In this document: positions 21,733 through 58,173 of the stretch, in pieces
Numbering within the stretch: position 1 is the stretch's first letter
Layout: each line of letters begins with the position of its first letter
IMG/VR virus record: IMGVR_UViG_3300031851_000015
Strand: one strand, 5' to 3'
DNA length: 64,000 bases
DNA from: an uncultured virus (IMG/VR IMGVR_UViG_3300031851_000015)
Lineage: Duplodnaviria; Heunggongvirae; Uroviricota; Caudoviricetes
The notes under the pieces: model-generated
What the model saw: only the letters and a program-made list of their open reading frames with translations
What the model was told of the DNA's origin: nothing
The model's database searches: none
Translations under genes and position numbers: made by a program

Positions 21733-21754
21733 TTATTCTTAAACGTCAGGTATT
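21733..21754 (-). promoter_or_regulatory. Class A T7-like phage promoter (AATACCTGACGTTTAAGAATAA)
   Basis: Identical 22-mer at 21825-21846 and 49598-49619; upstream of the head operon. Confidence 0.85.
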
Positions 21755-21759
21755 GTGAA

Positions 21760-21777
21760 GAAGCCCCGAAGGGCTTC
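21760..21777 (-). terminator. UUCG hairpin between the tandem promoters
   Basis: GAAGCCC-TTCG-GGGCTTC followed by TTC. Confidence 0.65.
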
Positions 21778-21824
21778 CTCTGAATAGAGACTGTCAGATG
21801 TTTAATCTGTCTCTTTGTTATCTT

Positions 21825-21846
21825 TTATTCTTAAACGTCAGGTATT
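21825..21846 (-). promoter_or_regulatory. Class A T7-like phage promoter
   Basis: Same 22-mer, abutting the stop codon of the 21846..22199 gene. Confidence 0.85.
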
Positions 21847-22199
21847 TACTTTTTGCCAAAAAACTTACTAACACCTCGCATACCAATACTAGCACTAACA
21901 ATACCTCCAAGAGAATATTGATACCACGCTGGCATAGCTTCAAGGGCTGCAAAGCCTTGAGAAACAATAACATTACCCCAATCACCACAGAAGGCTAAAA
22001 TCAGAGGTATTGAAAATAATAAAGTAATCCACTCGTCTTTCCACGAGTTTTGAGTAGCTTTAATTGCTTCAATATCCCAATCAATTTCACCTGTAGCTTG
22101 CTTAACTTTAATTTCGGCGTTAGCCTTTTGTACAGCAACTTTACCATCTAGGTAAGTAGTAGCTAAACCACCAACAGCACCTAAAATTTGTCCTATCAT
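21846..22199 (-). CDS. Holin-like membrane protein
   Basis: SWKDEW motif plus TM segments; adjacent to the endolysin. Confidence 0.6.
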   Translation of the reverse strand: MIGQILGAVGGLATTYLDGKVAVQKANAEIKVKQATGEIDWDIEAIKATQNSWKDEWITLLFSIPLILAFCGDWGNVIVSQGFAALEAMPAWYQYSLGGIVSASIGMRGVSKFFGKK

Positions 22200-22651
22200 G
22201 AGGCTAACTCAAAGTGAGGACCATCAATAAATGGGCGTCTATTTTGTGATCTTCGAGTATCAATGTAAGACATCATAGCAGCTTCTGCTGTACCTTCCCA
22301 AGAGCGAATGTCAGGGATATGCCAAGCAGCACCCCAACGTATTGGAACACCTTCTGCTATAGCTGCTTCTTTCATAGCGTCTGCAAGATCATCATAAACA
22401 TTTAACTCCCAACAACCTTTACCGTCTACGTAAGCCATAAGATCTACAGCATTACCATCAAGGTGTTTTGATTTTAATGTTTGAGACTTACCTGCAGCAA
22501 CAAGTTTCTTTTGTTCTTCAAGTGTTCTAAGTCCGTACACAACACCAAAATCTACTTTAGTAAGCTGGATAGCTTTGTGTACAACATTAACCAAGTTATG
22601 ATTGACGCCTTCTAACTTGTCTAAACTTCTTTTACTTAATTTAAAACTCAT
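22196..22651 (-). CDS. Endolysin, peptidase M15 (L-Ala-D-Glu) family
   Basis: F-LS-RS---L-GV, GLRT-EEQ, SKHLDGNAVD, IRWG--W and DGPHFEL motifs. Confidence 0.9.
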   Translation of the reverse strand: MSFKLSKRSLDKLEGVNHNLVNVVHKAIQLTKVDFGVVYGLRTLEEQKKLVAAGKSQTLKSKHLDGNAVDLMAYVDGKGCWELNVYDDLADAMKEAAIAEGVPIRWGAAWHIPDIRSWEGTAEAAMMSYIDTRRSQNRRPFIDGPHFELAS

Positions 22652-22652
22652 A

Positions 22653-22865: not shown

Positions 22866-22889
22866 TTATTTTTCCTTAATTTTGTTATT

Positions 22890-28800: not shown

Positions 28801-31592
28801 TCATTAGAATATTTAATATGAAGATAAGCATTATCACCGTCTTCTACCGTATATTCTATTCCTTCCTCTGGTACATACTTAACCCCTGCTGCATAAGTAA
28901 AGGAATTTGCACCGTCAGCTTTAGTTCCATATCTAATATATTTTACACCGGAAGGAATAGCATCAGTATAAGTTGAATCATCAGCACTATATTGAACATT
29001 AACTGAGGTACCACTTACAGCATCTTGAAGGCGATATATAGTTATACTATCACTAACATTACTATCAGCTGTTACAGTTATTGTTACTGAATCATTTGTT
29101 CCAAAATTAGCACTTGTTAACGTTCTAGTATTTCCTGTTCCAGTAAGCGTTACAGAAGGGCTAGTAGTAAAAGTAGCATTAGTATCTGTAGTATTTTGCA
29201 AAGCTGCTGTTAATGTTATACTTTGATTGCTAGGTGTTGCAGCTCCTTGAGAGTTAAAAGTAAAGGTTTGGCTTGTTGCACCTACAGAGATAGCTTTAGA
29301 ATTAATCCCTATAAATCTTGTAAAAGTAATACCTGACGTTATAGGGAGAGTTGGCAGGTCACTATTATATACGTAATAAGCAACAAAAGGTTTATTTACA
29401 CTAAAAGTATAACTTTGAGAATTACTGGCAGCGTTTACTGAATCAGCGTAAATAATAGCTACTCTGCTAACTGTAATTAAAGTTAAACTTTGGTTAGATA
29501 ACTCTACTCTTTCCGATTTTAATCCTGTAATATTTCTAGATCTTACTGAAAAGGTGTAATCTCCTGTTTTAAGACCTGTTATATCAAAACTGTTAGTAAC
29601 ACTTGTACCTAAAGTTTGAAAGTCAGCAATATCCCAATCTGAAGAGCTTGCGCTAGGTGTACTATTACTGTTATTTGTTTTTGCAACATAGTTCTGATTG
29701 TTATATCGAACCATATCTCCAATAACATAATTTCCGCTATTAGTCCACACAGTACCGACTCTTTGAGCCTCAATTATATACTCAACTACAGAAGCATCAT
29801 CTGCTGCTGTCCAAGAAAGTTTTCCTGAAGCTGTTCCTGTAATGTCTGATGTATTAGAAAAAGTTAAACTTGTTGGAACACCTACTTTAAAGTCAAAATC
29901 AGGTCTAACTACGTAAGATAAATCATTAGGTACATTCCATGCTAAAATATTAAAATCAAATCTAAAAGCAGAAATATCAACTGAAAAATCACTATTAACC
30001 TTAATAGATTCTACTCTAAATATTTCATTAGAAATACTCATAGTAGGCATATTAACTTTAATAATATCTCCAGGTTCTACAGTAAGTCCTTCTTTGTTAA
30101 TTGAAAAAGTTATTGTATAAAGATATCTAGATTTTCTTACTTGTTGTTCTGCTAAAGCTTGTGCATGATACTTACTAGTAACTCCATCACCTTGTAAAGA
30201 AGTTGTTAACGGTTGGTTATTGTCTTCTGTCAAGTAAGTTTGATGTACGCTACTATTTGTTGGAGGCCAAGTAAAAGTATCATCTTTAAAGTTTTCAAAT
30301 TCATTATCAAAACTAACTGTTACTTGATTAAATCTATCTTGTGCTTTTGGAAATACTAGTTTAACAGATTCACGTACTATGTTATCTTCATCAAACGTAT
30401 GAGTAATTAAAGCATCTTGTTGAGACTGTGTTTGTGGATAAGATAAAATAAGTTTATACTTACCTTGAGGCGTCCAAACAAGATCGGACAAGCCCATTGT
30501 ATTAAGAATACGCTCAATATTATTTCGAATAGTTTCTTCAGTACTTAAAGTAATGTTACACTCATAAAGAGAAATAGTATCTGTAGCGGGTGCAGTAGTT
30601 AAAGTGTAACTTGCAGTAATATTAGGCGTAGATCCTGATTGAGTCTGAGTATATAAGTTATCATTAGTTTCGTCATAGTATAAATACCCAGCCATATAAG
30701 GCTCAATATCAGTAGTAGGAAAATCATTTTGTGATGTGTAAGAAAAGATAGGCTTTACATCATTAACTTCACCACCAATAGTAGCACCTGTTAAAACAGG
30801 GGTATCACAAATATCTGCTGCATTATAAAAAGATTCTAAGTCTACGTCATTAGTAGTTAACCCTCTGCCAAAGTCATTGTTTAACAAATAATCTAATAAA
30901 CACAAAGAAGGGTTATTAGAGTAAGTATAACTTGAATTTAAAGAGTAAGTATAACCGCTTTCAGAAGAACCACTGCGAGTAACAGCGCGTACTTTTCTTC
31001 CCTTAACAATATAAGCCATCGAAGGAATACCGCTGTACTGTGGCTCATCTCTATTTAGTTTAAAAAAGTTACTAACATGAGCACAACCAGAAAAATTATT
31101 AGTGCTAGGAAAACCAAAAGCAGTTGCCGTTGCATCTGACGTTCCTCCAGTTGTATGAATATGAAATCTATGATTAAAAGAAGATTTGTTCTCTTTCATT
31201 TCTTTAGTATAACCACGATAGTCAATTTCATTAACTAAAATATGTTTTACACTTTCAATACCATCATGACACAAAGCTGTTTGAACAGCAAGAAATTCAT
31301 TTTTAGATCCAGTTTTTGCATTGTTATCAAAACTTGTTTCTAATTGTTGATTAGAATTTAAACTAACAGATGGATAAGAAGATTTTACTTTATAGTTACA
31401 ATGAATTCCACCTATTCTTTGCTTTCCATAAACAACAGGCAAAGGTGCAGAACTTCCAGAAACAGTAAACTTTTGCCCTTTACGAGCATCAGCCGCTGCC
31501 TCCATTTTCTTTTTCATTTTTTCAGCTTGTTTTACTTGATAAACAATAGAGGCTGCGGTAACTACCGCTTGAATAATTGCTAATGTACCCAT
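22890..31592 (-). CDS. Tail tip/host-specificity protein (lambda J-like central fibre, 2900 aa)
   Basis: PLPVVYG, VKGRKV and SNNPSLCLLDYL--GRG motifs; FN3-like segment; two CBM-like W----Y--GD-V-YN---Y repeats; Gly-rich C-terminus. Confidence 0.85.
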   Translation of the reverse strand: MGTLAIIQAVVTAASIVYQVKQAEKMKKKMEAAADARKGQKFTVSGSSAPLPVVYGKQRIGGIHCNYKVKSSYPSVSLNSNQQLETSFDNNAKTGSKNEFLAVQTALCHDGIESVKHILVNEIDYRGYTKEMKENKSSFNHRFHIHTTGGTSDATATAFGFPSTNNFSGCAHVSNFFKLNRDEPQYSGIPSMAYIVKGRKVRAVTRSGSSESGYTYSLNSSYTYSNNPSLCLLDYLLNNDFGRGLTTNDVDLESFYNAADICDTPVLTGATIGGEVNDVKPIFSYTSQNDFPTTDIEPYMAGYLYYDETNDNLYTQTQSGSTPNITASYTLTTAPATDTISLYECNITLSTEETIRNNIERILNTMGLSDLVWTPQGKYKLILSYPQTQSQQDALITHTFDEDNIVRESVKLVFPKAQDRFNQVTVSFDNEFENFKDDTFTWPPTNSSVHQTYLTEDNNQPLTTSLQGDGVTSKYHAQALAEQQVRKSRYLYTITFSINKEGLTVEPGDIIKVNMPTMSISNEIFRVESIKVNSDFSVDISAFRFDFNILAWNVPNDLSYVVRPDFDFKVGVPTSLTFSNTSDITGTASGKLSWTAADDASVVEYIIEAQRVGTVWTNSGNYVIGDMVRYNNQNYVAKTNNSNSTPSASSSDWDIADFQTLGTSVTNSFDITGLKTGDYTFSVRSRNITGLKSERVELSNQSLTLITVSRVAIIYADSVNAASNSQSYTFSVNKPFVAYYVYNSDLPTLPITSGITFTRFIGINSKAISVGATSQTFTFNSQGAATPSNQSITLTAALQNTTDTNATFTTSPSVTLTGTGNTRTLTSANFGTNDSVTITVTADSNVSDSITIYRLQDAVSGTSVNVQYSADDSTYTDAIPSGVKYIRYGTKADGANSFTYAAGVKYVPEEGIEYTVEDGDNAYLHIKYSNDNGTTFTGNNGEDVGTYIGTYSDNTAADSTTIGDYTWVQIEGSGGLTAILSNESHTLTAPNSGNPTIFTGSGTLISVFEGTTQLDYDGTGTANGHFTVTAAATGCTVGAISDSTNNASVAALTAMTADTASITFTITGKTLLGESFTITKTQSFSLSRLGDTGITGASTNIVFQRSATALTTAPTDSDITSSGPWYDNADDATGTGLLYAANGAKAAGATSFTWSDPFRVEGEAVAEIVIYRLNSNAGHAPATSPTYNFTNDTLTHPTSGWSRSAPALGSDGDIVYRSSGVASGSALETAAEVTFGTPVIYAQRTDGRSITGVSKSGETVTVTYDSGSDDTFTVNGISSVAKSGDTLTVTFDDNSTATVDDGIGIDSITKSGETVTVTYDQPDSNGNTITNTFTVADGLEGDGLARIYIASENKPTTPSASSGIPTGWSTTLPTKVKNIWASDGSRTNNTGNYTWGEPQLLSEITANTLLNQGFIPWTAGTGDNTVGGGLWDSTGETSENIREVDTDPFGGESIIWKSVNKDTSSAHDGGFYGPATEIDSTKLHRLSVFIKQENFENPTSTTTGGRYWGVYNRIAGGSARNITRSTDGVSTGNPYFKSNFDLPQNDRWYLLVSHVNPYQSSGYVNTVHPDSGLWDAETGEKVLTGFADYTITDSSLAAVADLRMRAFYYNDNSAIENKVLWFDPRIDTLDGAAPSISEILRKNPIPVTGTIIPVTSQTINKDVDNSTYSAGHLDFDAVFYQGTDIVAKRRYRVARSSDSWSTSVTTRDGDITDELNTSRLSSVASVSLKSAILEIDYNYLNSISKITASMSIVLDGEQGISGTPAKSVQITANSQVFTFDKNVDTSNNAIPVPSSQTITFTAKLQNTTGSATFTAVDENGTNVISNLTGTGNTRSLTAANFGNAEKYIVTATADGISDSITIHKIKEGSDAITAVLSNETHTIPCYPSGVGISYAGSGTEIRLYQGNTLLTPVASNQGNGEYRITVSSAGFFESNTPATHPQTSDITISGNIATMPDVSHLEARAPETLIQYSFNGYTNEGVWFNFSKTQKFIRSIEFSPRHSSIRYDDYYLKASSYPNNNPLNFSNWGFNGQTGYSTGGQYAAFNTGTGGSVTLNQPSNNFLYTLGSLTFNNATDAIGDPIHEASHLFLITPSEEEQTSHDKYHSITTLKQDDQIAIIREGIKVVFDVVNVDYVSYSTDADISRYVALIEFSYNSNESGPGATTVDFPGSADPNPIDIVLHHELKGNSGSDGTIVSINGSDIFLDPSDITTDFTTNTDAVQAKLNRAFLKANYLPLPSIATPTSAEYDAASNADLSQAMLIIPKDSNVFNRFVLKNNNTNANTSNNEFTISNVSAFLADPSFTIQNGYRPANDTRVFYEKSSDNSVQELGLNDFIAVNSPTSTIRLSDQFILNNIITANDKVTIDTIHHTTRKWQTRLASSDWVFNTVYAKGDLISYNSNTYIATDDISSGTSNPSSNSNWSVYNSNVWTDDAIVFEQPIVSELLISREAIIQHLSALKIDVTQLNINDMVEFGQGGGYKVNKTSPDDDTNGIFLGNPLPSGTGSSAVDLEFALATKGDKEINSTTFKHGVKFTAKETILENPTIKQGEKTGYTGNVLSSTASHATSGTNFNSSGGTETISGDTWNYVKIDPNAIEVSVEAIGGGGGGAGEANSSHNPGSAGTQSNFILVARTTTGGSFSDYTSIISSTTCLGGAGATGPGVDTFRGDPGQASIYAAGGYGGGSTSAGGNGSQGSGGGGRGGRSPDWDASSRKGGAGGRAGAQVTADSEVLSVGGNDTTLADNTGNPKFSSGEIRLYYRIGSGGVGGSGGGTGGDGLLKYSVTTVGANEVLLNPFGTRAWVNFVGNGSDATNATINGSSNIASVYKIASGRYTATFVTPMPNANYAITYAGSVATGYSPSVGTCIDVYSMSSTAFSFNISDPTGNNYANPRKVMLTVVV
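29327..29349 (+). promoter_or_regulatory. Antisense class A promoter-like site (TAATACCTGACGTTATAGGGAGA)
   Basis: First 14 nt are identical to the class A consensus, but on the opposite strand and inside the tail-tip CDS. Confidence 0.4.
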
Positions 31593-32772: not shown

Positions 32773-32775
32773 TTT

Positions 32776-35533: not shown

Positions 35534-35896
35534 TTAATTACCTACAGTCATGTTACATGCACGAGTAATATCCGACCAACCACTATCCCACTGCCACTGT
35601 ACAAATTGGCTTGTAGTTCTGAGATTATCAGTTCCACAAGTATTTCCAGAGGTTATGCCTCTATAGGTAGAGGTATTGGGGTGACAGTTTGTTGTAACTA
35701 AAGAATAATTCGCGTTGCTGTAGGCGGTGCTTATATTGACAGTTGTTTTTCCCACGGCTGTATCTGCTATGCTAGATATGTTTTCAGAGTCATCTATGTG
35801 TTGCGTTCCGTCTACACCCCACGTTAGCCAAGATTTTGCTGGATAAAGACCCGCGCCACTTGTAGTTTGAAACGCATTTGCTTTAAGTGTACTCAT
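35534..35896 (-). CDS. Small fibre-tip domain protein (MSTLK... paralog 1)
   Basis: Resembles 36298..36672 and the C-terminus of the 2900-aa tip protein. Confidence 0.6.
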   Translation of the reverse strand: MSTLKANAFQTTSGAGLYPAKSWLTWGVDGTQHIDDSENISSIADTAVGKTTVNISTAYSNANYSLVTTNCHPNTSTYRGITSGNTCGTDNLRTTSQFVQWQWDSGWSDITRACNMTVGN

Positions 35897-46800: not shown

Positions 46801-46815
46801 AGTAAGTCTCCTTTA

Positions 46816-48144: not shown

Positions 48145-48153
48145 AACTATTCT

Positions 48154-48618
48154 CTAATTTAATGTTGTTAACCATACAAAGCCTGTGAGACAGCCTAGCA
48201 AGAATATTAATAAAAATACTCCAGCACTCCACTCAATTATAGACTGTTTGAGTTCCATCTTACGAAACTCATGGTCTTTTTTCTTTTTACGAATCTCTGC
48301 TTCAATACCTAGAAGCTCTTCCCAGTGTGATGGGCCATAAGCAACACAAATAAAGTCTTTTAACTCTTTACGCATTGCTTCTTTTTTCTTTTGTGCAGCA
48401 AATAATTGCATAGCTTGTGCTTCTGTACCACCTCCTAAAGCTTTATACCAAGGTGGATTATCTGTTTGTTTCTGAGCAAAGTCTATGTCAGCCATAGCAC
48501 CTGCCCATTGAGAGAGTTGACCTCCCATGTCTTGTAAGTCTCTACCTATACTGATGCCTTTTTTGATAGCGTTAAACGCAGCCGAGGCTCCAGCAATAGC
48601 AGTAATTGGATCTATCAT
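48154..48618 (-). CDS. Membrane-anchored hypothetical protein
   Basis: MIDPITAIAGA N-terminus and a C-terminal TM segment. Confidence 0.65.
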   Translation of the reverse strand: MIDPITAIAGASAAFNAIKKGISIGRDLQDMGGQLSQWAGAMADIDFAQKQTDNPPWYKALGGGTEAQAMQLFAAQKKKEAMRKELKDFICVAYGPSHWEELLGIEAEIRKKKKDHEFRKMELKQSIIEWSAGVFLLIFLLGCLTGFVWLTTLN

Positions 48619-48661
48619 AGTATTCCCCTAGCTGTTATTAGTGCTATCAGGGATATATCTG

Positions 48662-48928
48662 TTATCTAATCTGTCGGTCTTGTTCCATCATATCTCTGAT
48701 GGCCTTTATATTCTCATCCATACGTACCATAGTCAAAGCTTGAGATTGAACTATATCTTCTAAAGCTTCTAAGCGAACCTCTTGGCGCATTAAGTCTCTA
48801 GTATTATTTTGTATAGCATTATCTAAGCTAGATACATACCATACAAGAGCTATTGTTTGAAATAAGATGGCTAAAATAAATGTTACAGGCACACTCTTAG
48901 AGAGATGCCAAGGATCTGAATCACTCAT
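48662..48928 (-). CDS. Membrane/coiled-coil hypothetical protein
   Basis: MSDSDPWHLSKSVP, then a TM segment and a coiled coil. Confidence 0.6.
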   Translation of the reverse strand: MSDSDPWHLSKSVPVTFILAILFQTIALVWYVSSLDNAIQNNTRDLMRQEVRLEALEDIVQSQALTMVRMDENIKAIRDMMEQDRQIR

Positions 48929-49289
48929 CGTCTTTTTCCTTATTATTAGTGAGTAATATAGAAATAGGCTTCTTTTCAGTAACCTCTTGCTCGATCTTAT
49001 CAGGGATTTTCTTATAGCCATACATCATTAAGTTATTAATGAGAGTGCCTTGAGTAGCTACTAGTTGAGCATATGCACCACCACCTAAAGGTGTTTTACC
49101 GCTGTGATGATGAGCTAACTGCTCTTCAATATAGTTATACTTCTTAACCATCATCTCAATAGGGTCAAATTGAAGCTCTTCAAGCTTTCTAACAGACGCC
49201 ATAGAGTTAATATTCTTAGACCCTTTAGGACGACCAGCGCCTTCACGCCGACCACCCATTTGAGGCTTAGTCGGATTCGGATTAGCCAT
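48921..49289 (-). CDS. terS: Terminase small subunit (putative)
   Basis: GGRREGAGRPKGSKN motif and FDPIE--V; lies upstream of terL. Confidence 0.65.
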   Translation of the reverse strand: MANPNPTKPQMGGRREGAGRPKGSKNINSMASVRKLEELQFDPIEMMVKKYNYIEEQLAHHHSGKTPLGGGAYAQLVATQGTLINNLMMYGYKKIPDKIEQEVTEKKPISILLTNNKEKDDE

Positions 49290-49441
49290 TTTGTTCAGTC
49301 CTTCTTTCTGGAATGTTTTTCAATTGAAATTTTTTATAATTCTTTTCATATATTTAAAAGAATACTATAATAACTTATTGAAAACATTTAATTTCTTATT
49401 TATAACCAACCAATACAAAAGTATAGTTTTTAATACTTACA

Positions 49442-49603
49442 CTAAGGATACCAAAGTGATATCAATAACCCCCCGTGCTGTATACACAGAGAGTGTAGAG
49501 AGGATACTATCGGGGGGCATTTAGAGCATTCTCTTTCAAGTATCAGTAGAGAAGTCCTAGATATCACTTTGGCAGAGCCTTAGCAAAGTTATTAAGTTTA
49601 TTC
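49442..49603 (-). ncRNA. Putative structured RNA or leader (three-way junction) from the class A promoter
   Basis: 13-bp perfect inverted repeat (49451-49463/49560-49572) enclosing two hairpins, in a 300-nt non-coding gap. Confidence 0.5.
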
Positions 49604-49620
49604 TTAAACGTCAGGTATTA
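49598..49620 (-). promoter_or_regulatory. Class A T7-like phage promoter (TAATACCTGACGTTTAAGAATAA)
   Basis: Aligns gap-free to the T7 promoter, with G at the +1 position (49603); heads the packaging/fibre operon. Confidence 0.85.
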
Positions 49621-49623
49621 TTT

Positions 49624-49906
49624 TCAGACAGAAATATCAAGAACTTCTCCTTGAAATAATCGTTGTCTTTCGTAGTAAGTATTGTTTTGTTGTTTTTGTA
49701 GAGTCATTAGCTCTTCAGCTTTTTCTCTCCAATTTTTTTCTAAAACCTTTTGAGCTCTTTTCTCTTGAGCTGTTATCATTTCTTCTCTAGTCTCTCGATA
49801 AGCACCATCTTCTGGCATCATAGCTTCATTATAAGGTTTAAAGACTATGTTGTCATGTGTTTCGAAAGGCATATTGGGAAGAGGCATGTGAGATATTAAT
49901 GTCATA
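49624..49906 (-). CDS. Hypothetical protein
   Basis: MTLISHMP... with an AGGA RBS. Confidence 0.55.
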
Positions 49907-49919
49907 GCTTTCCTATTTG

Positions 49920-49987
49920 AAAAAAAAAAAAATAAATCCCCACACCCCTCCAACCACCCCCAAAGGAGCAGCTAGAGAGATGTGGGG
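49920..49987 (-). terminator. Strong terminator: 23-bp stem (7 G-U pairs) plus a long U tract
   Basis: 49938-49960 pairs fully with 49965-49987 only as minus-strand RNA. Confidence 0.85.
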
Positions 49988-49994
49988 GAAAAAT

Positions 49995-50357
49995 TTAATA
50001 AGAGAAGATACTATCTTTAATTTCTAGACCAACAAAGATATTACTTGCAATATCATCTGTATCAAAGTCTGTTAGGTTTGTTTTAGCAAAAGCTTGTGTG
50101 CTGTTACCTAATGCATAACCTAGTTTTAAAGAAGGAGTAAATTCTTCTGCATCATCGTCATAGGTAATTACACCGTGTAGTGATACAGCATTTACACCAA
50201 CAGTATAAGAACCATAGTAAGATACATCTTTAGTGCCTTCGTAATTAACACCTAGTGCAGCGTTATTATAAGCGAATTCTACGTGAGGTGTGATGGTTGG
50301 ATACTCATCTACCTTTTCAATTTGTGCTGCTAGTGCAACGCCAACTAGTAAGTCCAT
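49995..50357 (-). CDS. Putative small beta-barrel/outer-membrane protein
   Basis: Alternating hydrophobic beta strands with aromatic residues (LGVNY, SYYGSY, LKLGYAL, FVGLEI). Confidence 0.45.
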   Translation of the reverse strand: MDLLVGVALAAQIEKVDEYPTITPHVEFAYNNAALGVNYEGTKDVSYYGSYTVGVNAVSLHGVITYDDDAEEFTPSLKLGYALGNSTQAFAKTNLTDFDTDDIASNIFVGLEIKDSIFSY

Positions 50358-50376
50358 TTTATTTTCCTTTGTTAAA

Positions 50377-50583
50377 TTAGGGTATGTATCCCTCTGTACT
50401 GGCAACATAGCCAGCAAAATAAGAGTATCGAGGATCCCATCGGAGTTTATACTCTTGCTTGTTAAATTCTACTACCATGATGTCATGGTCCATAGGGTCT
50501 TTTGAGCTTTGCATTTCAACAAAGTCTACGAGTAAGTAGCTAAGATTTTGGTTGTAAGGTATAAAAGTTTCAGTAGTATTCAT
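50377..50583 (-). CDS. Hypothetical protein
   Basis: 68-aa coupled ORF. Confidence 0.55.
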   Translation of the reverse strand: MNTTETFIPYNQNLSYLLVDFVEMQSSKDPMDHDIMVVEFNKQEYKLRWDPRYSYFAGYVASTEGYIP

Positions 50584-50993
50584 TACACTTCTTCCAATAC
50601 AATAAACTTTACGTTATAAGGGTTAGGGAGCTTTTTAACATCATCTATATGATCTTTAGAGACCACCATAACTTCTACTAAAGGCTCTTCTACAAACCCT
50701 ACGTGATGACGAGTATCCCAACGATACATAGAAAAGCTTCTTTGACCAATCTTACGATTAATATTAGAAAGTCTAGACTCATTAGGATCAGTGCAAATAA
50801 TAGACATATCAGGGTGTTTCCATAAGTAATCTATTAAATGCTCTGTAAACTCATCTACTCCATAAATAGCACAAACTCCTAACTCTCCGTACTTTTTGTA
50901 ATAATCATCAGCAGAAGTTTTAGGGTTATGTTTTAGCTTTATCTTAGCGGGTCTACCTGCCTTCTTTTTAGTCGGCTGTTTCGTTGTTGTCAT
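50583..50993 (-). CDS. Hypothetical protein, possible degenerate Rossmann fold
   Basis: CAIYG...HPDMSIICTDPNESRL resembles a Gfo/Idh/MocA N-terminus; basic KKKAGRP leader. Confidence 0.45.
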   Translation of the reverse strand: MTTTKQPTKKKAGRPAKIKLKHNPKTSADDYYKKYGELGVCAIYGVDEFTEHLIDYLWKHPDMSIICTDPNESRLSNINRKIGQRSFSMYRWDTRHHVGFVEEPLVEVMVVSKDHIDDVKKLPNPYNVKFIVLEEV

Positions 50994-51204
50994 TTGATTC
51001 CAATGATTCTTTGAGTTGAGCAACAATAGCATTACGACCTGCATCTACATAAGCTAACTCTGCTTGAAGAGCCTGAGCTTTATTACCTGCAGTTTGAATT
51101 ACAATTAACATGTTTTGTTGTGGTGGTGTCATGTCTTCAATAATATAAGACTTATCGTCTAAAGTGATTGTTGCTTTTTGTTGTTCTTGAAGTTGTTCAG
51201 TCAT
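50968..51204 (-). CDS. Hypothetical coiled-coil protein
   Basis: TITLDDKSY-IEDMT--Q pattern. Confidence 0.6.
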   Translation of the reverse strand: MTEQLQEQQKATITLDDKSYIIEDMTPPQQNMLIVIQTAGNKAQALQAELAYVDAGRNAIVAQLKESLESNDNNETAD

Positions 51205-51412
51205 TTTTTAATTTCTCTCTTAATTCTTGATATCCCCCAGTTAACTTTAATACTACTGGTACAGTGCTCATTCCTAGATCTAACTTAATTAAATCCATAT
51301 AGTGTGGGTTAATAGTAATGTCTTTATATACATAAGGAGTATTAGTACTATCCAAAAGGTTAATTGCTTGAGTACAATGTCCACATTTCTCTCGCCCTAA
51401 TACTAAATACAT
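51197..51412 (-). CDS. Glutaredoxin
   Basis: CGHC, TVP and GGY motifs. Confidence 0.85.
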   Translation of the reverse strand: MYLVLGREKCGHCTQAINLLDSTNTPYVYKDITINPHYMDLIKLDLGMSTVPVVLKLTGGYQELREKLKND

Positions 51413-51579
51413 TATTCTTCCTCATCTTCTTCAGAGGCAGCTAAACAAGCCATAAACCCTGCTTCAAACAAAACATGAAATATATCATTTAATGAGTTAT
51501 CAGAGTTTAAATCAAATCCATCTTCCATAAATTCATTAAAATACTCTAATACTACAGCATCTAATTCTTCAGGTGTCAT
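51412..51579 (-). CDS. Small acidic protein (55 aa; not in the ORF track)
   Basis: MTPEELDAVVLEYFNEF...EEDEEE; fills the gap with overlaps. Confidence 0.55.
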   Translation of the reverse strand: MTPEELDAVVLEYFNEFMEDGFDLNSDNSLNDIFHVLFEAGFMACLAASEEDEEE

Positions 51580-51778
51580 TTCTTTTTCCTGTTTTCATTT
51601 TATCTTTTTCTAACCAAATTAAGTGGCTAATATCACCACGGCTTAACCCAATGTCTTGAAGAGTTTGATCGTCTAAGCTATTAAGCTGTTTAATAGTCTC
51701 TCGATGTGCTCTCCAGGTTTTTAAGTATTTAACGTATCGAACAATAATATGTTCTTTTAAGTATTTAAGCATTATCAC
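51569..51778 (-). CDS. DUF1127 (YjiS-like) family protein
   Basis: WRAHRETIKQLNSLDDQTLQDIGLSRGDI signature. Confidence 0.85.
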   Translation of the reverse strand: MIMLKYLKEHIIVRYVKYLKTWRAHRETIKQLNSLDDQTLQDIGLSRGDISHLIWLEKDKMKTGKRNDT

Positions 51779-51950
51779 TCCAAGCTATGCACTTCCAATC
51801 GTGTGCAACCCATCTACGTTCTTCAACATAAGCAATACCAAATCCTATTTGTTTTAAACATTCTTCTTCAGATGCAAACAAAGCAGGATTAGCAAAACTT
51901 CTGCATTCGGTTCCTTCTATAGTACATGCTAATATAATTGCAGTAAACAT
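51765..51950 (-). CDS. Small Cys-containing hypothetical protein
   Basis: MFTAIILAC...C...F-SEEEC...C pattern. Confidence 0.6.
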   Translation of the reverse strand: MFTAIILACTIEGTECRSFANPALFASEEECLKQIGFGIAYVEERRWVAHDWKCIAWSDNA

Positions 51951-51962
51951 TTATTTTCCAAT

Positions 51963-52076
51963 CTAAAATGGTAGCCACCCTAGCCAAGCAAGAAAGTATA
52001 GTCCGACCCACGTATTAACTATACTTCCTGCAATAAAGCCAAATGCATACCCTATTAATTTAAAGGCATTATCCAA
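51963..52076 (-). CDS. Small membrane peptide (37 aa, TTG start; not in the ORF track)
   Basis: GGAG RBS; MDNAFKLIGYAFGFIAGSIVNTWVGLYFLAWLGWLPF. Confidence 0.45.
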   Translation of the reverse strand: MDNAFKLIGYAFGFIAGSIVNTWVGLYFLAWLGWLPF

Positions 52077-52260
52077 TTTTATACTCCGATTTAAGGGCTA
52101 TAATATCCATAATATATTCATTACAAGCATCCCAATTAGTAAATACTTTTTTAGTATTATTATAATCACCATCTTCAGTTCGACCACTATAGTTTAATAC
52201 ATAACCATTTTCACAAAAGTCTACAGAAAAATCAGATACTTCTTTTACAATCTTATTCAT
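52069..52260 (-). CDS. Hypothetical protein
   Basis: 63-aa ORF. Confidence 0.55.
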   Translation of the reverse strand: MNKIVKEVSDFSVDFCENGYVLNYSGRTEDGDYNNTKKVFTNWDACNEYIMDIIALKSEYKIG

Positions 52261-52806
52261 TTATATCTCTCTTATATCATAATTAAATTTTTTAAAATCT
52301 TCTTCAAACAAGTTACTAATTAAACTTTTAGCATAATCGTCATAATAATCTTTATAATTATACGTAGGTTGACTGTTAACTTTAGTTGAAGTTAATTTTA
52401 CTTTAATGAAATCTTCTAGGTCTTTTAATTCTGTTTCTAATTTAAAAAATTTTACTTTATTATTTTTATTAGATTTAATAAATTTATTTTGAGAAGTATT
52501 TATAGTCCAATTATCATTATCTACATCTTTCCAATAATCTTTAAAAGATAGTTTACTAGAAGTATATAACCATTGGCTAACTGCCCTGCTATAAGGATTT
52601 CTTACTATTGTAATAAATTTATTAGTATTAATTTCAGATTCCCACATATATAATGGGTAATGTTGGGTTCCTATTTTAAAATTTAAATCTAAAGCATACC
52701 GATAAGGCTCTTGAATATTTTTTAATTGCATTCTACAATTATATTTTAAATTAGTACCACTAGTTTTTGGTATATGAATAAAAGCCCATTTGTCTGTATA
52801 TATCAT
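52261..52806 (-). CDS. Sulfotransferase family protein
   Basis: FIHIPKTSGT (5'-PSB) and VRNPYSRAVS (3'-PB) motifs; ATG at 52806. Confidence 0.85.
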   Translation of the reverse strand: MIYTDKWAFIHIPKTSGTNLKYNCRMQLKNIQEPYRYALDLNFKIGTQHYPLYMWESEINTNKFITIVRNPYSRAVSQWLYTSSKLSFKDYWKDVDNDNWTINTSQNKFIKSNKNNKVKFFKLETELKDLEDFIKVKLTSTKVNSQPTYNYKDYYDDYAKSLISNLFEEDFKKFNYDIREI

Positions 52807-52807
52807 A

Positions 52808-52830
52808 TTATTCTTTAACGTCAACTATAT
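52808..52830 (-). promoter_or_regulatory. Degenerate class A promoter (ATATAGTTGACGTTAAAGAATAA)
   Basis: The 3' 16 nt match the consensus; sits at the nrdJ/sulfotransferase junction. Confidence 0.5.
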
Positions 52831-54696
52831 TTCACAACCACCTGCACCGCAAGCTAGTGTTTGAGCACCTTCAGTTTCATCTTCAAATTCATAGTTAGGA
52901 AGCAAAGAAAAGTCTACTTCAGGGAAAGCATGAACCGCTTTAATATACTCTTGCTCAGTGCAAGGCGAATAAGGAGCTTGTGCATAAGTATGCTCACTGT
53001 AAGGCAAGAAACTAATGCCAGTTACGTTATCAAAGTTCTTGAATACCCAATCACCTACCTCTAGCCATTCATGTTCTTTCACATAAATAGTTACTGAAAC
53101 TGAGTGTTCAGACCACCAAGTTTGATAAGCCAACCAGTTTTCAAGCTGCTCGATAGCTGTTTGTTCGTTAGCTAGTGTAGCACCTGTTGGTGATTTAATT
53201 GGAAAGTAAAATACAGTAGTACGCTCTAAGTTCATAGCGTCTGGTTCGTTAGGTACACCTTGATCTTTAAGAAGTTGTGTTAAAGGATCATTGTTTGACT
53301 GACGAACAGATCGAATATAATAAGGGGCAAAGCGACCATGAATGCCACTAGCGCTGTCAACAAGCTGGCTAACAGTACCACTTGGCTTAACTGTAGTAAT
53401 AGCTGTAGCGGGGTTAATAGAAAGCCTTTCGGAATAGTCTCTATTAGTTTGAATAGCAACATCTTTCATTTCCTTTAACAGCTTTGGATCAGGATTTTGT
53501 AACAATTTACAGTCCTGAATACCAGTTAAGCTTACACCTAGTAAGCTTTCTTCTTCACAATTCTTTTGCCATACTTTACGAACATATTTAAAGTCTGTTA
53601 GAGATGCTTGAAACGTACCAAGAATAGTAGCAATACGTACTTTACGCTTGAGATCTTCTTCTGTGTCATCTACTCGACATACTACTTCCGATAAGTTGCA
53701 GAGTTGTCCTGAACGCAATAAGATTTCTGCACAAGGATTAGTGCCACGAATTTGTGAACTATCTCTGCGACCCCCGTTAGTATTGCGTTGAGCGCCATAG
53801 CGACTATAAATACCACGCTCACCAGAGCCTGATTTCTTAAGCGCTAACCACTCTTCCATGAATACATCCATAGAAGGCTTTTGATCATAAGCAGCAGAGT
53901 TATTAGCCAAAGCACGTTGTGAGTTATTTTCCCACCACATACCTGATTTAGCATCCCGCACTTCTGGGTCTGTAAGATCACTTAAAGAAATTAAAGCAGA
54001 GCGGCGTACACCGCCTACTACAACAATCTCTGCAATTTTACACACAATATCGTGTACTTCAATAGGGCGTAGTTTACGACCTGCTGCGTTCTTAAACGTA
54101 GTTGTTACAAACTCAAATAAACGTTTAAGAGGTTCAGGGCCAGAAGCCCGACCACCCATAGTTTTAAGACGAGCACCTTCTGGTCTAACTTTAGAATAAT
54201 CCCATTCATGTTCATTTCCTAAATATAAATCTGCTACAAGTTTACGTAATCCTTTTGCCCAACCTTCAGCACTATCTTCAATAGAAATAGTACGTTCTGT
54301 TTTAACAAATTGATCGTTAATAATAGGTAGTTTATTTACAGCACTAGCTTCAGCTGAAAAGCCTACACCTGTACCAGCCATAAGAATATAAAGTATTTCA
54401 TCAAATACTCTAGGATGATCAACTTCTACAAAGCTACAGTTATAGCCTCGGAAGTGATTTTTTGATAGTGCGTCTCCAGCACTCCACATAGAGCGCATAG
54501 AGGGCATGACTTCTTTGTTGTATACAGCATCATGCACCTCTTGGAATTCCGCATCAGTAATAACATTATTACCAATTTGTTCTTTCCAAAATCCGATGAG
54601 TCTATCTACAGTTTCGTTCCACGTTTCGCGCCGATTCCAGTCAGCTATAAAACGTGAGTATCGTGAAAGATGGATAAAGTCTTCGTAAGCTTTCAT
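52825..54696 (-). CDS. nrdJ: Class II (adenosylcobalamin-dependent) ribonucleotide reductase
   Basis: YNCSF, GGVRRSA, TNPCAEI, CNLSEV, TVKPSGT and C-terminal CGAGGCEI motifs; no beta subunit nearby. Confidence 0.92.
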   Translation of the reverse strand: MKAYEDFIHLSRYSRFIADWNRRETWNETVDRLIGFWKEQIGNNVITDAEFQEVHDAVYNKEVMPSMRSMWSAGDALSKNHFRGYNCSFVEVDHPRVFDEILYILMAGTGVGFSAEASAVNKLPIINDQFVKTERTISIEDSAEGWAKGLRKLVADLYLGNEHEWDYSKVRPEGARLKTMGGRASGPEPLKRLFEFVTTTFKNAAGRKLRPIEVHDIVCKIAEIVVVGGVRRSALISLSDLTDPEVRDAKSGMWWENNSQRALANNSAAYDQKPSMDVFMEEWLALKKSGSGERGIYSRYGAQRNTNGGRRDSSQIRGTNPCAEILLRSGQLCNLSEVVCRVDDTEEDLKRKVRIATILGTFQASLTDFKYVRKVWQKNCEEESLLGVSLTGIQDCKLLQNPDPKLLKEMKDVAIQTNRDYSERLSINPATAITTVKPSGTVSQLVDSASGIHGRFAPYYIRSVRQSNNDPLTQLLKDQGVPNEPDAMNLERTTVFYFPIKSPTGATLANEQTAIEQLENWLAYQTWWSEHSVSVTIYVKEHEWLEVGDWVFKNFDNVTGISFLPYSEHTYAQAPYSPCTEQEYIKAVHAFPEVDFSLLPNYEFEDETEGAQTLACGAGGCEI

Positions 54697-54702
54697 AGTA
54701 AG

Positions 54703-54948
54703 CTACTCCTGTTCGTTTTCGTTAAAATATTTAAATGAATCCAACGGTTTAACCACTGGTTTTTTCTTTTTAGGTTTTGATTTAGGCTTTAATACCTCTG
54801 AATACCACATAGTGCTAATAACATCTAATGCGGCTTGTGGGTATAGTTTTCTAATATTAGGATTAAGAAGCCATTTATCAAAGTCTTCGTTTGAAAACCC
54901 TTTTTTCTTAAGCGAGTTATAAACCGCTGTCATTGTTTGAGTATACAT
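54703..54948 (-). CDS. Hypothetical protein
   Basis: 81-aa coupled ORF. Confidence 0.55.
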   Translation of the reverse strand: MYTQTMTAVYNSLKKKGFSNEDFDKWLLNPNIRKLYPQAALDVISTMWYSEVLKPKSKPKKKKPVVKPLDSFKYFNENEQE

Positions 54949-55202
54949 TAATGCATATTCCTTTTTGATTGTAAGTGTGAATTCATTATCGTGTCTGCAA
55001 AATAATAAAACCTGTCACCTAACTCTGTACTTTGTTCGTTAATGTTGTGAAAAGAATTAACTATCTTTTCTATAAAGTCCATTACATTAGGATTAATTTC
55101 TGATACATCTGCACCACCATCTAGTAGTTGCAATATTATAGACATCCAAAACTCGTCTGGTGGAGAATCAAACTCGCTCAAAGTTCTCTTCGTTGAATTC
55201 AT
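54948..55202 (-). CDS. Hypothetical protein
   Basis: 84-aa ORF overlapping the helicase end. Confidence 0.5.
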   Translation of the reverse strand: MNSTKRTLSEFDSPPDEFWMSIILQLLDGGADVSEINPNVMDFIEKIVNSFHNINEQSTELGDRFYYFADTIMNSHLQSKRNMH

Positions 55203-56808
55203 CGGAACCCTTTCTTAATCTGCCTGTGTCAAAGTTATAAAACATAGAACCTGATGGGCCAGTTAAGCCTGTGTATCTACATTTAAGAACTTTAGTCCTA
55301 ATAGTATTTCTTTCTTCTTCACTTTCTGAACCTACGTTTCTAGCAAAAGCAATAATATCCATACTAATTTGTTTAATACTACCAGAGCCACGAATATCAT
55401 CCATAGAGGGTAGTTTACCTTCTTCAAAGCTTTTACCTTTGTTATCTGTTTTACGCAAATGGCTAATAAGACCTAGCCATACGTTATACTTCTTAACCAA
55501 CCGTAAAAGGTCATTCATAATTTTATCTATCGCTTCATTTCCGGTGAGTCCTTCAGTTCCTTCAGAAGCAAGTATAGTAATGTGGTCCACAAAGAGATAC
55601 TTACAACCGCTAAGACACATATACTCAAGAAAATCCATGATGGAGCCATCAGATATAGAACCTTGATGATCAAGGACCATAACACGGTTATCACTGAAAA
55701 TAGTATCAAATCCTTCTTTAAGTTCATCTATAGGGATCTCCTCTTTGGCAGGGTTTCTACTAAGAGCCATTCCAGACATTTTTCTTGCAGTTTCAGCGGG
55801 ACTTTCTTCCAGACTGATAAGGCCGATTTTATCTTCAGTTCTTTCAAGAAGATGTACAGCAATTTCCCGAAGAAGCGTACTTTTACCTGATCCGGTTCCG
55901 CTAGTCCAGAGAGTGATTTCTCCGAATCGCATACCCTTAAGCTTCTCATTAAGACCTTCCATAAAGTCGGGATAAGGTACAGATTCAATTTCATTGTAAG
56001 CCTCCAGTTGAGTCCATAGTTCATCTTTAGTAAGAATACCTGCAGGTGTGTAGTCTACAGCATCGTAGATCACTTTTAATACTTTGTCAGGGTCTTTTAT
56101 CCAAAGATCACTAGCATCTTTCTCTGATGATTTAGCTATCTTAATCTTATCATAACCTATTATACGAGCAGCTTCTTTTACTGCTTTTTCGCCAGCTTCG
56201 TCCTTATCAAGCCATAAAATAACTTCATCAAAGTTACGAATCCAATCACGACATTCGATAAGATCTCGTATAGAACTAGCACTACGAATACTAACCACAG
56301 GATAAAAAGTTTTATACTTCTTATACCAAGCTGATTGGACTGCCATAGCATCTAGCTCACCCTCCGTTATTACTAATCTTTTACCACCGTTGTAGAGTTG
56401 TTGTCCAAATAGTCCACCTTTAACGGTACCACATGAGGTAAAGGTTTTGGGTAGATCTCTGACTTTGTAACCGGAGATCTTGTTGCCCACATAATAAGGA
56501 TAGTAATGGCTAGAAATATCTCCGTCGATATTATAAGATACTTTAACACCGTAATGCTCCGATACTTGTTTATAAATGTTTCTTTCTTTAAAGCCACGTA
56601 TCGGATAGTCTTCTGTAATTTCTTCTACCGTATCATTATTAACTGCTACCCATTGTGTTTCTACTGGTTGCATGTTGCCCTCCTTTGGGGCAGGGAAAGA
56701 GGCTCTACAAGAAAAACAAAATGCAGAGCCTTCTTCATAAATTTGTTTGGCATCTGAACTGCCACACTTTTCACATGGTTGATTACGAGTGACTATTGTC
56801 CCCATCAT
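55168..56808 (-). CDS. DNA primase-helicase, T7 gp4-like
   Basis: Zn finger CEKCGSSD...CFSC, TOPRIM ITEGELDA/LDKD, GTGSGKST, VDHI and IRGSGSIKQ motifs. Confidence 0.95.
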   Translation of the reverse strand: MMGTIVTRNQPCEKCGSSDAKQIYEEGSAFCFSCRASFPAPKEGNMQPVETQWVAVNNDTVEEITEDYPIRGFKERNIYKQVSEHYGVKVSYNIDGDISSHYYPYYVGNKISGYKVRDLPKTFTSCGTVKGGLFGQQLYNGGKRLVITEGELDAMAVQSAWYKKYKTFYPVVSIRSASSIRDLIECRDWIRNFDEVILWLDKDEAGEKAVKEAARIIGYDKIKIAKSSEKDASDLWIKDPDKVLKVIYDAVDYTPAGILTKDELWTQLEAYNEIESVPYPDFMEGLNEKLKGMRFGEITLWTSGTGSGKSTLLREIAVHLLERTEDKIGLISLEESPAETARKMSGMALSRNPAKEEIPIDELKEGFDTIFSDNRVMVLDHQGSISDGSIMDFLEYMCLSGCKYLFVDHITILASEGTEGLTGNEAIDKIMNDLLRLVKKYNVWLGLISHLRKTDNKGKSFEEGKLPSMDDIRGSGSIKQISMDIIAFARNVGSESEEERNTIRTKVLKCRYTGLTGPSGSMFYNFDTGRLRKGSDEFNEENFERV

Positions 56809-56977
56809 CTGCTCCTATATGTGCTGTGAATTTAGACATTTCTTGAAACAATAAAAAGAATATAATACTTGTAATAGGATTAACTAAGTGATAACCCATA
56901 ATTTCTGAGACTAAAGTAAAGGCTAATAAACCTACACTTACAATCCACAGGGCTACTGCCATTGGTGATACTTCCAT
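56783..56977 (-). CDS. Small membrane protein
   Basis: Two hydrophobic segments. Confidence 0.55.
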   Translation of the reverse strand: MEVSPMAVALWIVSVGLLAFTLVSEIMGYHLVNPITSIIFFLLFQEMSKFTAHIGADDGDNSHS

Positions 56978-57441
56978 TATAAAAACCTTTTCTTTAATAC
57001 ATTAACATACCTCTTGGTTTTTGTAGTAGGAAACTCTTTTGGTACAAACCTAATAGCAGCAATTTGTCTATTGTAAAACCTAGGTGTAACATTGTCAGGT
57101 AAATACTCTGTCATACAATCAGATAACATTTGAAGGTAAGCTTCTGCATAATACAGTCCACCTTTAGTTTTATAAAGGTCTACAATCTCAAATCTAAAGT
57201 TATCTTTTTTGTACTTGCCAATATCTTGTTTTAAAGCTTTAGAAGAACCTACATAGGTTTTCCATGTCATTGCTTTACCATAAGTCCTAGACTTCTTTTT
57301 ACCACCATGCCAAAATTGTTTCTTTCCAATATAATACTGTTTAGTAGCTAAATTTTCTATACAATATACAAAGCCAAACCAATCACTAGGATCAAACTTT
57401 TTATTATATTCCCAGTGACCCTTATCTGTTAACATAAGCAT
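56977..57441 (-). CDS. GIY-YIG family endonuclease
   Basis: GFVYCI-N----QYYIGKK, W--Y-GS, YAE and FYN motifs. Confidence 0.75.
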   Translation of the reverse strand: MLMLTDKGHWEYNKKFDPSDWFGFVYCIENLATKQYYIGKKQFWHGGKKKSRTYGKAMTWKTYVGSSKALKQDIGKYKKDNFRFEIVDLYKTKGGLYYAEAYLQMLSDCMTEYLPDNVTPRFYNRQIAAIRFVPKEFPTTKTKRYVNVLKKRFL

Positions 57442-58135
57442 TATACTTTTCTTTTGGCAGAATAAAATGATCGTCTTGTTTACGCCAGATATGCAATAGC
57501 TTGCCATTCGCTAACATATGAGCGTGACCTTCATCAATGTAAAAATCATTGTATGCCTTACAAACAATTTCTTTTCGATGCGCAGGTAACGTTGTACCTT
57601 CAAGCATTTTTTCAGCTTTCTTAGGTCCAATTTTAGGAATACCTGGGATATTGTCTACACTATCACCCATAAGTAATTGTTTCCAATAGAAATAATCAGC
57701 ATAGTCTTTGTCAATTATATAAGTTTCTTTTTTACGAGGATTGTAGTGAAGACCTTCAATGCAGTCTAAGTCCTTATCTACAGTAACAATTGCATAAGGT
57801 TGTTTACATTCGTTGGCCCAAATGCGAACCATGTCATCAGCTTCACAATTATCTGTTAGTATACAACCTTCATACTCGTTTACAACATCTGATTTCAAAT
57901 CTAAGAACCAGTCTGGTCTTGTAGATTTTGACTTTGATCGATTAGCTTTATACTCAGGGTATACGTCTACTCTAAAGTTATCAGGACCACCTAAGGCCAT
58001 AACATAATCAGTTGTAAATAAGTCTTCTAGTATAGCAGTAAAAAGACTATCAAAGTTTTCTCGTGCTTCTTCTTTGGTTTCTGCACCCCATATACTCATG
58101 TATAGTAGTACATCACCATCAACAATAGCTAACAT
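57422..58135 (-). CDS. 5'-3' exonuclease, T7 gp6-like
   Basis: VDGD, YKANR, EADD, DKDL and GDSVDNIPG--KIGPKKA motifs. Confidence 0.92.
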   Translation of the reverse strand: MLAIVDGDVLLYMSIWGAETKEEARENFDSLFTAILEDLFTTDYVMALGGPDNFRVDVYPEYKANRSKSKSTRPDWFLDLKSDVVNEYEGCILTDNCEADDMVRIWANECKQPYAIVTVDKDLDCIEGLHYNPRKKETYIIDKDYADYFYWKQLLMGDSVDNIPGIPKIGPKKAEKMLEGTTLPAHRKEIVCKAYNDFYIDEGHAHMLANGKLLHIWRKQDDHFILPKEKYNAYVNR

Positions 58136-58150
58136 AGTAGCTCCTTTATA

Positions 58151-58173
58151 TTGTTCTTTAACGTCAGGTATTA
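58151..58173 (-). promoter_or_regulatory. Class A T7-like phage promoter (TAATACCTGACGTTAAAGAACAA)
   Basis: 21/23 identical to 49598-49620; directly upstream of the AAGGAG RBS of the exonuclease. Confidence 0.85.

Follow-up and report, generated by a model that had tools for sequence, protein, structure and literature searches.

Arrangement of the window and the class A motif

The DNA analysed here is a 64,000-nucleotide stretch (the window) from the uncultured virus IMGVR_UViG_3300031851_000015 (Caudoviricetes), and the element of interest is a repeated ~23-bp motif, termed class A, that lies at five gene junctions within it. The window derives from a Naomviridae-like siphophage, the fusion of a MuF protein with an RNA polymerase (RNAP) that it encodes being ~62% identical to that of roseophage DSS3_VP1. 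Its long open reading frames (ORFs) are all on the minus strand, and PHROG and Pfam scans gave a siphovirus-type gene set. From high to low coordinates, which is the direction of transcription, a first block carries the genes for DNA polymerase, a MazG-like protein, a 5'-3' exonuclease, a primase/helicase and ribonucleotide reductase; a second those for large terminase (46816-48144, among the packaging genes), tail fibres, PhoH, a J-like tail protein and endolysin; and a third those for the portal, the 1451-residue MuF-RNAP fusion (14937-19292, minus strand), the scaffold, the major head protein and the tail, with the tape-measure gene last. A block of small ORFs follows the tape-measure gene. 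The five class A copies, with their predicted +1 positions, are:

58151-58173, minus strand: class A copy TAATACCTGACGTTAAAGAACAA, +1 G at 58156, 37.8 bits
52808-52830, minus strand: class A copy with a degenerate upstream half, +1 G at 52813, 29.2 bits, same site present in the related genome G001
49598-49620, minus strand: class A copy, +1 G at 49603, 36.4 bits, with a conserved structured leader between it and the packaging genes
21825-21847, minus strand: upstream member of a tandem class A pair, +1 G at 21830, 36.7 bits, before the portal, MuF-RNAP and head operon
21733-21755, minus strand: downstream member of the tandem pair, +1 G at 21738, 34.6 bits

A first-pass annotation, made from the letters of the window alone, had described these five copies as phage promoters placed at gene junctions in the coding direction. 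Core, weight-matrix and repeat-finder matching all returned the same five. The 22-mer AATACCTGACGTTTAAGAATAA occurs exactly on the minus strand at 21733-21754, 21825-21846 and 49598-49619, and with two mismatches at 58151-58172; allowing up to three mismatches gave 4 matches in the window against 0.00 expected from 100 shuffles. The 16-nt core TGACGTTWAAGAAYAA is present in five mismatch-free copies, on the minus strand only and including the degenerate copy (52808-52823), and a repeat finder grouped the five as family D6. A position weight matrix built from 17 distinct sites of the window clade scored the five at 29-38 bits in a scan of the whole window, with the next best coding-strand site at 8.1 bits.

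The placement at gene junctions was likewise borne out. Each site closely follows an upstream stop codon and precedes the next gene, and the predicted +1 guanines, 5/5, fall within the 5.1% of the window that lies outside a crude ORF cover and was counted as non-coding (P ~3e-7). The copy at 58151-58173 begins 20 nt past the stop codon of the MazG-like gene and ends 20 nt before the ATG of the exonuclease gene, with an AAGGAG Shine-Dalgarno sequence between motif and start codon. In the copy at 52808-52830 the upstream half runs over the end of the ribonucleotide reductase gene and is degenerate for that reason. The downstream member of the tandem pair is positioned ~90 nt before a 95-residue gene that itself precedes the portal gene.

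The class A consensus TAATACCTGACGTTWAAGAAYAA spans positions -17 to +6. In the 17 distinct sites the conserved positions run from -16 to +6 with high information content and make up a single asymmetric block that has no inverted repeat; the motif is contiguous over ~23 bp and has no -35/-10 split. No consensus sigma-70 -35/-10 pair with 16-18 nt spacing coincides with a class A site, and sigma-70-like matches were at shuffle level (11 vs 10.5 +/- 3.6, and 8 vs 5.9 +/- 2.4). When four class A copies were folded as single-stranded DNA, the predicted structures were all different, with energies of 0 to -3.3 kcal/mol (z -2.4 to +0.9), and no common inverted-repeat hairpin of the phage N4 type was found among them.

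Two of the copies are accompanied by predicted RNA structure. Directly downstream of the copy at 49603 and upstream of the packaging genes lies a conserved structured element of ~170 nt (49410-49603, minus strand) with 43 predicted pairs, 9 of them showing compensatory changes across 4 sequences (two of which are near-identical), and a minimum free energy z of -6.7; it has no Rfam match, and its candidate roles are those of a leader RNA, a processing site of the RNase III type and a packaging signal acting at the DNA level. The 76 nt between the tandem copies (21755-21830, minus strand) form two hairpins, the second G+C-rich with a UUCG loop (-25.9 kcal/mol, z = -5.2).

Conservation of class A among related phages

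Class A motifs are found at matching gene junctions and on the coding strand in seven relatives (G001-G006 and DSS3_VP1), and in further IMG/VR loci, in clade-specific variants. Matches to the pattern GACNNTWAAGAR on the coding and non-coding strands numbered 6/1 in G002, 9/0 in G003, 5/1 in G004, 6/0 in G005 and 7/0 in G006, with a reversed control giving 0-3, while DSS3_VP1 has 8 sites that differ from TGACGTTWAAG at no more than one position, 8/8 of them on the coding strand. The recurrent positions are before the portal gene (often in tandem, with such pairs also in G001, G002 and G006), before the exonuclease gene, before the packaging genes, and after the gene for a second, free-standing RNAP described below.

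Positions -9 to +3 are near-fixed, and the differences between clades are at -12 to -10 and at -6. The variant AAT[AT][CG]CTGACGTTWAAGAA is shared by the window, G001, G004 and G005; G003 and G006 have ...CTGACCTTWAAGAA, G002 has TACCAGGGGACGTTAAAGAA and DSS3_VP1 has ATAGGTKACGYTAAAGAGGGGG. The core is common to phages of 37% and 47.5% G+C. Several relatives have a Shine-Dalgarno sequence that falls exactly at +3 and a start codon 14-15 nt further on, as would suit a transcript whose 5' end is at the motif. An asymmetric, co-oriented element of ~23 bp that keeps its +1 G and has a clade-specific specificity region is what would be expected of the cognate promoter of a phage single-subunit RNAP, as the first-pass annotation had supposed, and with high probability this is what class A is.

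A probable free-standing T7-like RNAP beyond the window edge

The RNAP encoded within the window is the MuF-RNAP fusion. In DSS3_VP1 a separate gene, DSS3VP1_00056, annotated as 'RNA polymerase', lies between the tape-measure and DNA polymerase genes. G001 (60.8 kb), the nearest record to the window, encodes a 716-residue homologue that is 57% identical to the DSS3_VP1 protein and matches T7 RNAP in the PDB with E = 4e-62; its specificity loop can be aligned with that of T7 RNAP and it ends in FAFA. Homologues of this free RNAP are present in G001-G006 and in DSS3_VP1 and DSS3_PM1, and the protein collection searched contains 721 relatives.

BLAST alignment with G001 set the first position of the window against G001 4371 and the far end of the window (63611-64000) against G001 690-1079. 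On the circular map the window is thus without ~3.3 kb, which in G001 contains the free RNAP gene (2136-4283), and by synteny it ends 88 nt short of that gene. That relatives encode a second polymerase in this segment was invisible to the first-pass annotation. Judged by this synteny, the genome from which the window comes probably encodes a free RNAP of its own.

In G001 a sixth coding-strand class A copy, at a position beyond the window, follows the stop codon of the free RNAP gene by ~200 nt, with a conserved gene ~55 nt further on. In G003 (2165-2175) and G006 (21625-21635, both in oriented coordinates) the free RNAP gene has an additional class A copy ~240 nt before it; if the free RNAP reads class A, an autoregulatory loop of positive feedback would result. 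The more distant Pelagiphage Kolga has a free RNAP (32% identical) and a 633-residue MuF protein with no polymerase domain; k-mer counts and inspection of upstream regions revealed no recognisable repeated promoter motif in its genome.

Covariation of the specificity loop with class A

In the free RNAP of G001 the residues aligned by HMMER with R746, N748, R756 and Q758 of T7 RNAP are R, E, I and K. To pair loops with promoters, pattern matches were collected in the 450 nt past the RNAP stop codon from G001-G006, DSS3_VP1 and 80 IMG/VR loci found by RNAP alignment. From the 80 loci, 17 were dropped for want of a loop anchor (the gene being cut by the contig end or too divergent), 4 because fewer than 300 nt lay downstream and 4 because no match was present; the remaining 55/80 were reduced to 41 distinct loop/site pairs.

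Where the 748 equivalent is glutamate, -11 is C in 23 pairs (CCT in 22 and CCC in 1); lysine there is paired with G at -11 in 11 cases (GGG in 9, GGT in 1 and AGT in 1), and leucine with T at -11 in a single one. Five further glutamate pairs have other triplets; these are weak second matches, all in loci that also have a CCT site. The 746 equivalent is R and position -7 is C in every pair except that from locus L149, which is considered below. Published rules for T7-like RNAPs (PMC11880802) assign C to D, G to N and G to K at residue 748, for promoter position 7, and C to R at residue 746, for promoter position 11, in 91% of pairs. We read promoter position 7 as -11, an assignment of our own that was checked against T7. 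Class A and the free RNAP follow these rules in the T7 register, and it is the free RNAP that tracks class A from clade to clade, not MuF-RNAP. We consider it probable that class A motifs are the middle and late promoters of the phage's own free-standing T7-like RNAP.

A separate observation concerns position -6, where a G-to-C change in two clades coincides with a Q-to-N or Q-to-R change two residues past the Q758 equivalent.

The early region and the class B motif

Past the tape-measure gene, towards window position 1, lie the following features:

3255-3278, minus strand: hairpin and T-run terminator, directly after the tape-measure gene
3201-3228, minus strand: class B motif GTGAGAAAAACAACGCATCTATAATGAA, a candidate early promoter with which the early region opens
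696-723, minus strand: second class B copy of the early region, with the free RNAP gene downstream of it, past window position 1

This terminator closes the late operon and marks it off from the early region. Class B (GTGAGAAAAAYAACGCATCTATAAYGAA) occurs right after the terminator and again at 723-696, and takes the general form AAAAAGTGAGAAAA-N5-GCATCTATAATGA. It is present in all the relatives (G001-G006 and DSS3_VP1), mostly between the tape-measure and free RNAP genes, and is near-invariant across clades; in DSS3_VP1 it is found at 35806 and 36253, with a partial copy at 67790. Class A and class B are the only conserved promoter-like motifs, and the early region has no copy of class A. Upstream of the free RNAP gene the window clade has class B motifs alone, class A beginning directly after the gene, and the free RNAP therefore cannot be the sole reader of class B. 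Class B is a candidate early promoter, possibly for MuF-RNAP carried in the virion.

These arrangements suggest an order of expression. The early region, which extends from the terminator behind the tape-measure gene as far as the free RNAP gene, would be switched on from class B, either by MuF-RNAP delivered with the virion or by the host enzyme. The free RNAP would then be made, and would start transcription at the G of T(T/A)AAG in each class A site. Class A would thereby drive the replication block, the packaging and tail block, and the block of portal, MuF-RNAP, head and tail genes, with transcription ending at the terminator after the tape-measure gene.

A fuller version of this scheme can be advanced only tentatively, and we put it at slightly under an even chance. 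It is a relay of two polymerases, in which MuF-RNAP would enter with the DNA and read class B, and the free RNAP so produced would read class A and express the middle and late genes, among them that of MuF-RNAP itself. Under such a relay the host polymerase would be largely dispensable, the promoters would work on uracil-containing DNA in those relatives whose DNA has deoxyuridine, and the E/C and K/G variants would amount to ready-made orthogonal pairs. The cultured relatives reportedly need amplification before sequencing owing to the replacement of deoxythymidine by deoxyuridine in their DNA, according to PMC12669031.

Comparison with known phage promoter systems

On the features tested class A works like a T7, T3 or SP6 promoter and is one of that kind, with a new core sequence. 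The promoters of these Autographiviridae are likewise contiguous and asymmetric over ~23 bp, with an AT-rich segment at -17 to -13, variable positions at -12 to -10, a conserved stretch from -9 to +3 and G at +1. They too lie at gene junctions and are co-oriented with the genes, and the probable reader of class A is, like theirs, a T7-like RNAP that obeys the 746/748 rules. PMC4496689 places the binding region of T7-family promoters at -17 to -5 and the initiation region at -4 to +6. The differences are in the core, CTGACGTT in class A against GACTCACT in T7; in the free RNAP, which is compact (716 residues against 883) and has an N-terminal part that cannot be aligned with that of T7; and in the phage, a long-tailed siphophage with a second, MuF-fused RNAP.

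The class A variant of DSS3_VP1 shares 12-14 of 18 positions with the SP6 promoter 18-mer in register. In the DSS3_VP1 genome the top 2 matches to this 18-mer (14/18) are class A sites, and four other positions reach 13/18. The 18-mer was adopted as the promoter string from its co-occurrence with 'SP6 promoter' in a listing of 71 papers, and the match lends modest support to a register with +1 at the G.

Phage N4 offers a different precedent. According to PMC4496689, N4 also has two T7-family polymerases, one of them carried in the virion, that use different types of promoter in sequence. The N4 virion RNAP (vRNAP) reads hairpin promoters, however, whereas class A is a duplex-type 23-mer with no hairpin; N4 RNAPII is a heterodimer that needs cofactors and has a minimal promoter of -7 to +2; and N4 late genes use the host enzyme, whereas class A covers the late virion genes too. 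Virion RNAP modules of the N4 type were described, in PMC5512222, from N4-like phages and prophages only and as almost always fused to a metallopeptidase. The candidate virion enzyme of the window is instead fused to MuF.

The closest known systems are DSS3_VP1 and DSS3_PM1 (Naomviridae, Noahvirus), which have the same gene order, both polymerases (62% identical for MuF-RNAP and 56-57% for the free RNAP) and both motif classes. They differ in having GG at -12/-11 together with K in the loop, where the window has CC and the free RNAPs of window-clade relatives have E. The terms 'RNA polymerase', 'RNAP' and 'MuF' do not appear in the main text of the paper describing these two phages (PMC8323127). 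A promoter-mining study covers T7-, phiKMV-, KP34- and Syn5-like RNAPs, and its text does not contain the string 'siphovir'. Literature searches on the DSS3_VP1 RNA polymerase, on Naomviridae, on MuF with a single-subunit or virion RNAP and on siphovirus phage-specific promoters found no description of class A promoters or of a two-polymerase setting.

Which polymerase reads class A

Several results weigh against assigning class A to the free RNAP, or weaken the case for it. The first-pass annotation had aligned the motif without gaps to the T7 promoter; such an alignment can be made, with 12/23 positions matching the T7 consensus, and yet this likeness is not above background, the class A sites of the window not being among the best matches to the T7 promoter 18-mer. 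Resemblance to T7 was consequently set aside as evidence. The free RNAP of the window's genome is deduced from G001, which shares 25% of sampled 31-mers with the window and aligns at 90-97% over most of it. The covariation represents few independent events, perhaps 1-3 clade splits, and one locus, L149, departs from it by combining E at the 748 equivalent with GGG (-11 G), its 746 equivalent being E and not R. Both enzymes of the window phage have R...E at the 746/748 equivalents and so are indistinguishable there; telling them apart depends on the other clades and on aligning a loop that is very divergent. A profile of 31 MuF-RNAP members matches T7 RNAP (E = 5e-5) over T7 residues 722-841, the loop included. 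Finally, part of the stretch is present in 6 RNA-library runs, and contigs from four of these, examined over 48000-59500, run across the class A sites at 49603 and 58156; as contigs cannot show ends, strand or level, this is neutral either way.

The foremost alternative is that MuF-RNAP, packaged in the head, reads class A and so transcribes the replication, packaging and head genes together with its own gene in a positive feedback, as the first-pass annotation had proposed. MuF-RNAP shares 62% identity with the 'minor head protein-like protein' of DSS3_VP1 and DSS3_PM1 and 29% with a protein of EBPR siphovirus 1, and has 315 relatives in the protein collection. It retains the catalytic motifs and the T7-like loop region, its R...E in the window phage fits C at both -7 and -11, and the tandem class A pair does drive the operon in which it is encoded. 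The 31-member profile found no match to N4 vRNAP, and hhalign of MuF-RNAP with the free RNAP families extended over 519 columns at 16% identity (E = 0.0044); this alignment and the profile match to T7 RNAP indicate that MuF-RNAP is T7-like as well.

Against this assignment, a single-sequence search with MuF-RNAP matched no solved RNAP. Its 748 equivalent is E in G002 (P0095) and D in DSS3_PM1 (P0062), although -11 is G and the free RNAP has K there; among the 31 members it is E in 19, D in 4, S in 4, Q in 2, R in 1 and T in 1. With MuF-RNAP as reader the free RNAP would be left with no promoter class from which to bootstrap, and an enzyme carried in the virion would be expected to act first, yet the early region has no class A. 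Taken together this makes MuF-RNAP an unlikely reader of class A, and leaves its positive feedback on its own gene unsupported. The further suggestion of a new orthogonal RNAP-promoter pair is still plausible, with the free RNAP as the enzyme and not MuF-RNAP.

EBPR siphovirus 1, known from a partial 54.5-kb record, has a MuF-RNAP (~28-29% identical) and no free RNAP, and its coding strand shows neither the class A nor the class B motif; both it and Kolga are too distant to decide which polymerase reads class A. In the same record (L017 25771-31144) an HNH endonuclease gene, gp48, interrupts the MuF-RNAP homologue and leaves it in two parts, gp47 and gp49.

It is improbable that class A is no promoter at all but a strand-specific junction signal of another kind, such as a sequence bound by a phage regulator or a place where RNA is processed or transcription pauses. 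The RNA contigs showed no 5' ends, two copies are followed by strongly structured RNA (z = -5.2 and -6.7) in which processing sites are possible, and any phage-encoded reader would covary with clade. Set against these are the single asymmetric block conserved from -16 to +6 with no inverted repeat, the weak single-strand folds that differ from copy to copy, the Shine-Dalgarno sequences at +3 in relatives, and variable positions that obey the residue-base rules of T7-like RNAPs.

Still less probable is a reading of class A by the host multisubunit RNAP, redirected by a phage factor. A factor of this kind could be encoded among the many small early-region ORFs that match no family, and the late genes of N4 work in this way (PMC4496689). 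The motif has no -35/-10 anatomy, though, sigma-70-like sites are at chance level, the core is common to phages that differ widely in base composition (37% vs 47.5% G+C), and no sigma-like protein was found among 54 ORFs scanned. Equally remote is a shared reading in the window clade, with the virion enzyme priming and the free enzyme amplifying, which would suit the identical residues at the 746/748 equivalents in the window phage but fails in the clades where the two loops differ and leaves the conserved class B without a role.

Antisense look-alikes and other features of the window

Two sequences resembling class A, overlooked by the first-pass annotation, are found on the opposite strand:

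29327-29349, plus strand (antisense): class A look-alike TAATACCTGACGTTATAGGGAGA, inside the J-like tail gene
44073-44095, plus strand (antisense): class A look-alike, 27.4 bits, in the repeats of a tail-fibre gene and shared with G001

The first contains the exact 13-mer of the upstream half followed by ATAGGGAGA (0.03 expected), and its initiation region is different; it joins an exact upstream half to a TATAGGGAGA-like start region. A plus-strand counterpart was not found in G001, where this stretch of the tail gene aligns partly and weakly. At the second site the repeat unit resembles part of the motif, so that the look-alike there may have arisen by chance. The two could be antisense promoters, relics or, for 44073-44095, chance matches. 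The 1447-residue tail-fibre gene in which the latter lies (42595-44830) contains long arrays of 21-nt (7-residue) repeats, which have opened long frames on the opposite strand as well.

Right behind the class A copy at 52813, G001 lacks a segment of 526 bp (52273-52798), which contigs from three RNA-library runs also leave out, joining at a 9-nt repeat. The segment contains most of a 187-residue ORF with weak sulfotransferase matches, and is an insertion/deletion polymorphism. The exonuclease gene is separated from that for the primase/helicase by a gene for a GIY-YIG, SegE-like homing endonuclease (56977-57507, minus strand). Of the sampled words of the region 48800-58500, 44-99% are present in each of at least 13 runs that carry the label of a probable DNA metagenome. 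No tRNA was found in the window, and no Rfam family was detected in it at gathering thresholds, nor in 49250-49650 at E up to 1.

Implications

The mechanism of class A would in itself be ordinary for a T7-like polymerase; the two-polymerase setting is less so. If the assignment to the free RNAP is true, a compact T7-family polymerase of 716 residues with a distinct 23-bp promoter and natural specificity variants would be available as a source of candidate orthogonal expression parts. The MuF-fused polymerase would then stand at the start of the infection programme, and would not be part of a self-feeding loop. For this family of phages, which is widespread in marine and freshwater environments, the class A motif would provide a map of transcription.

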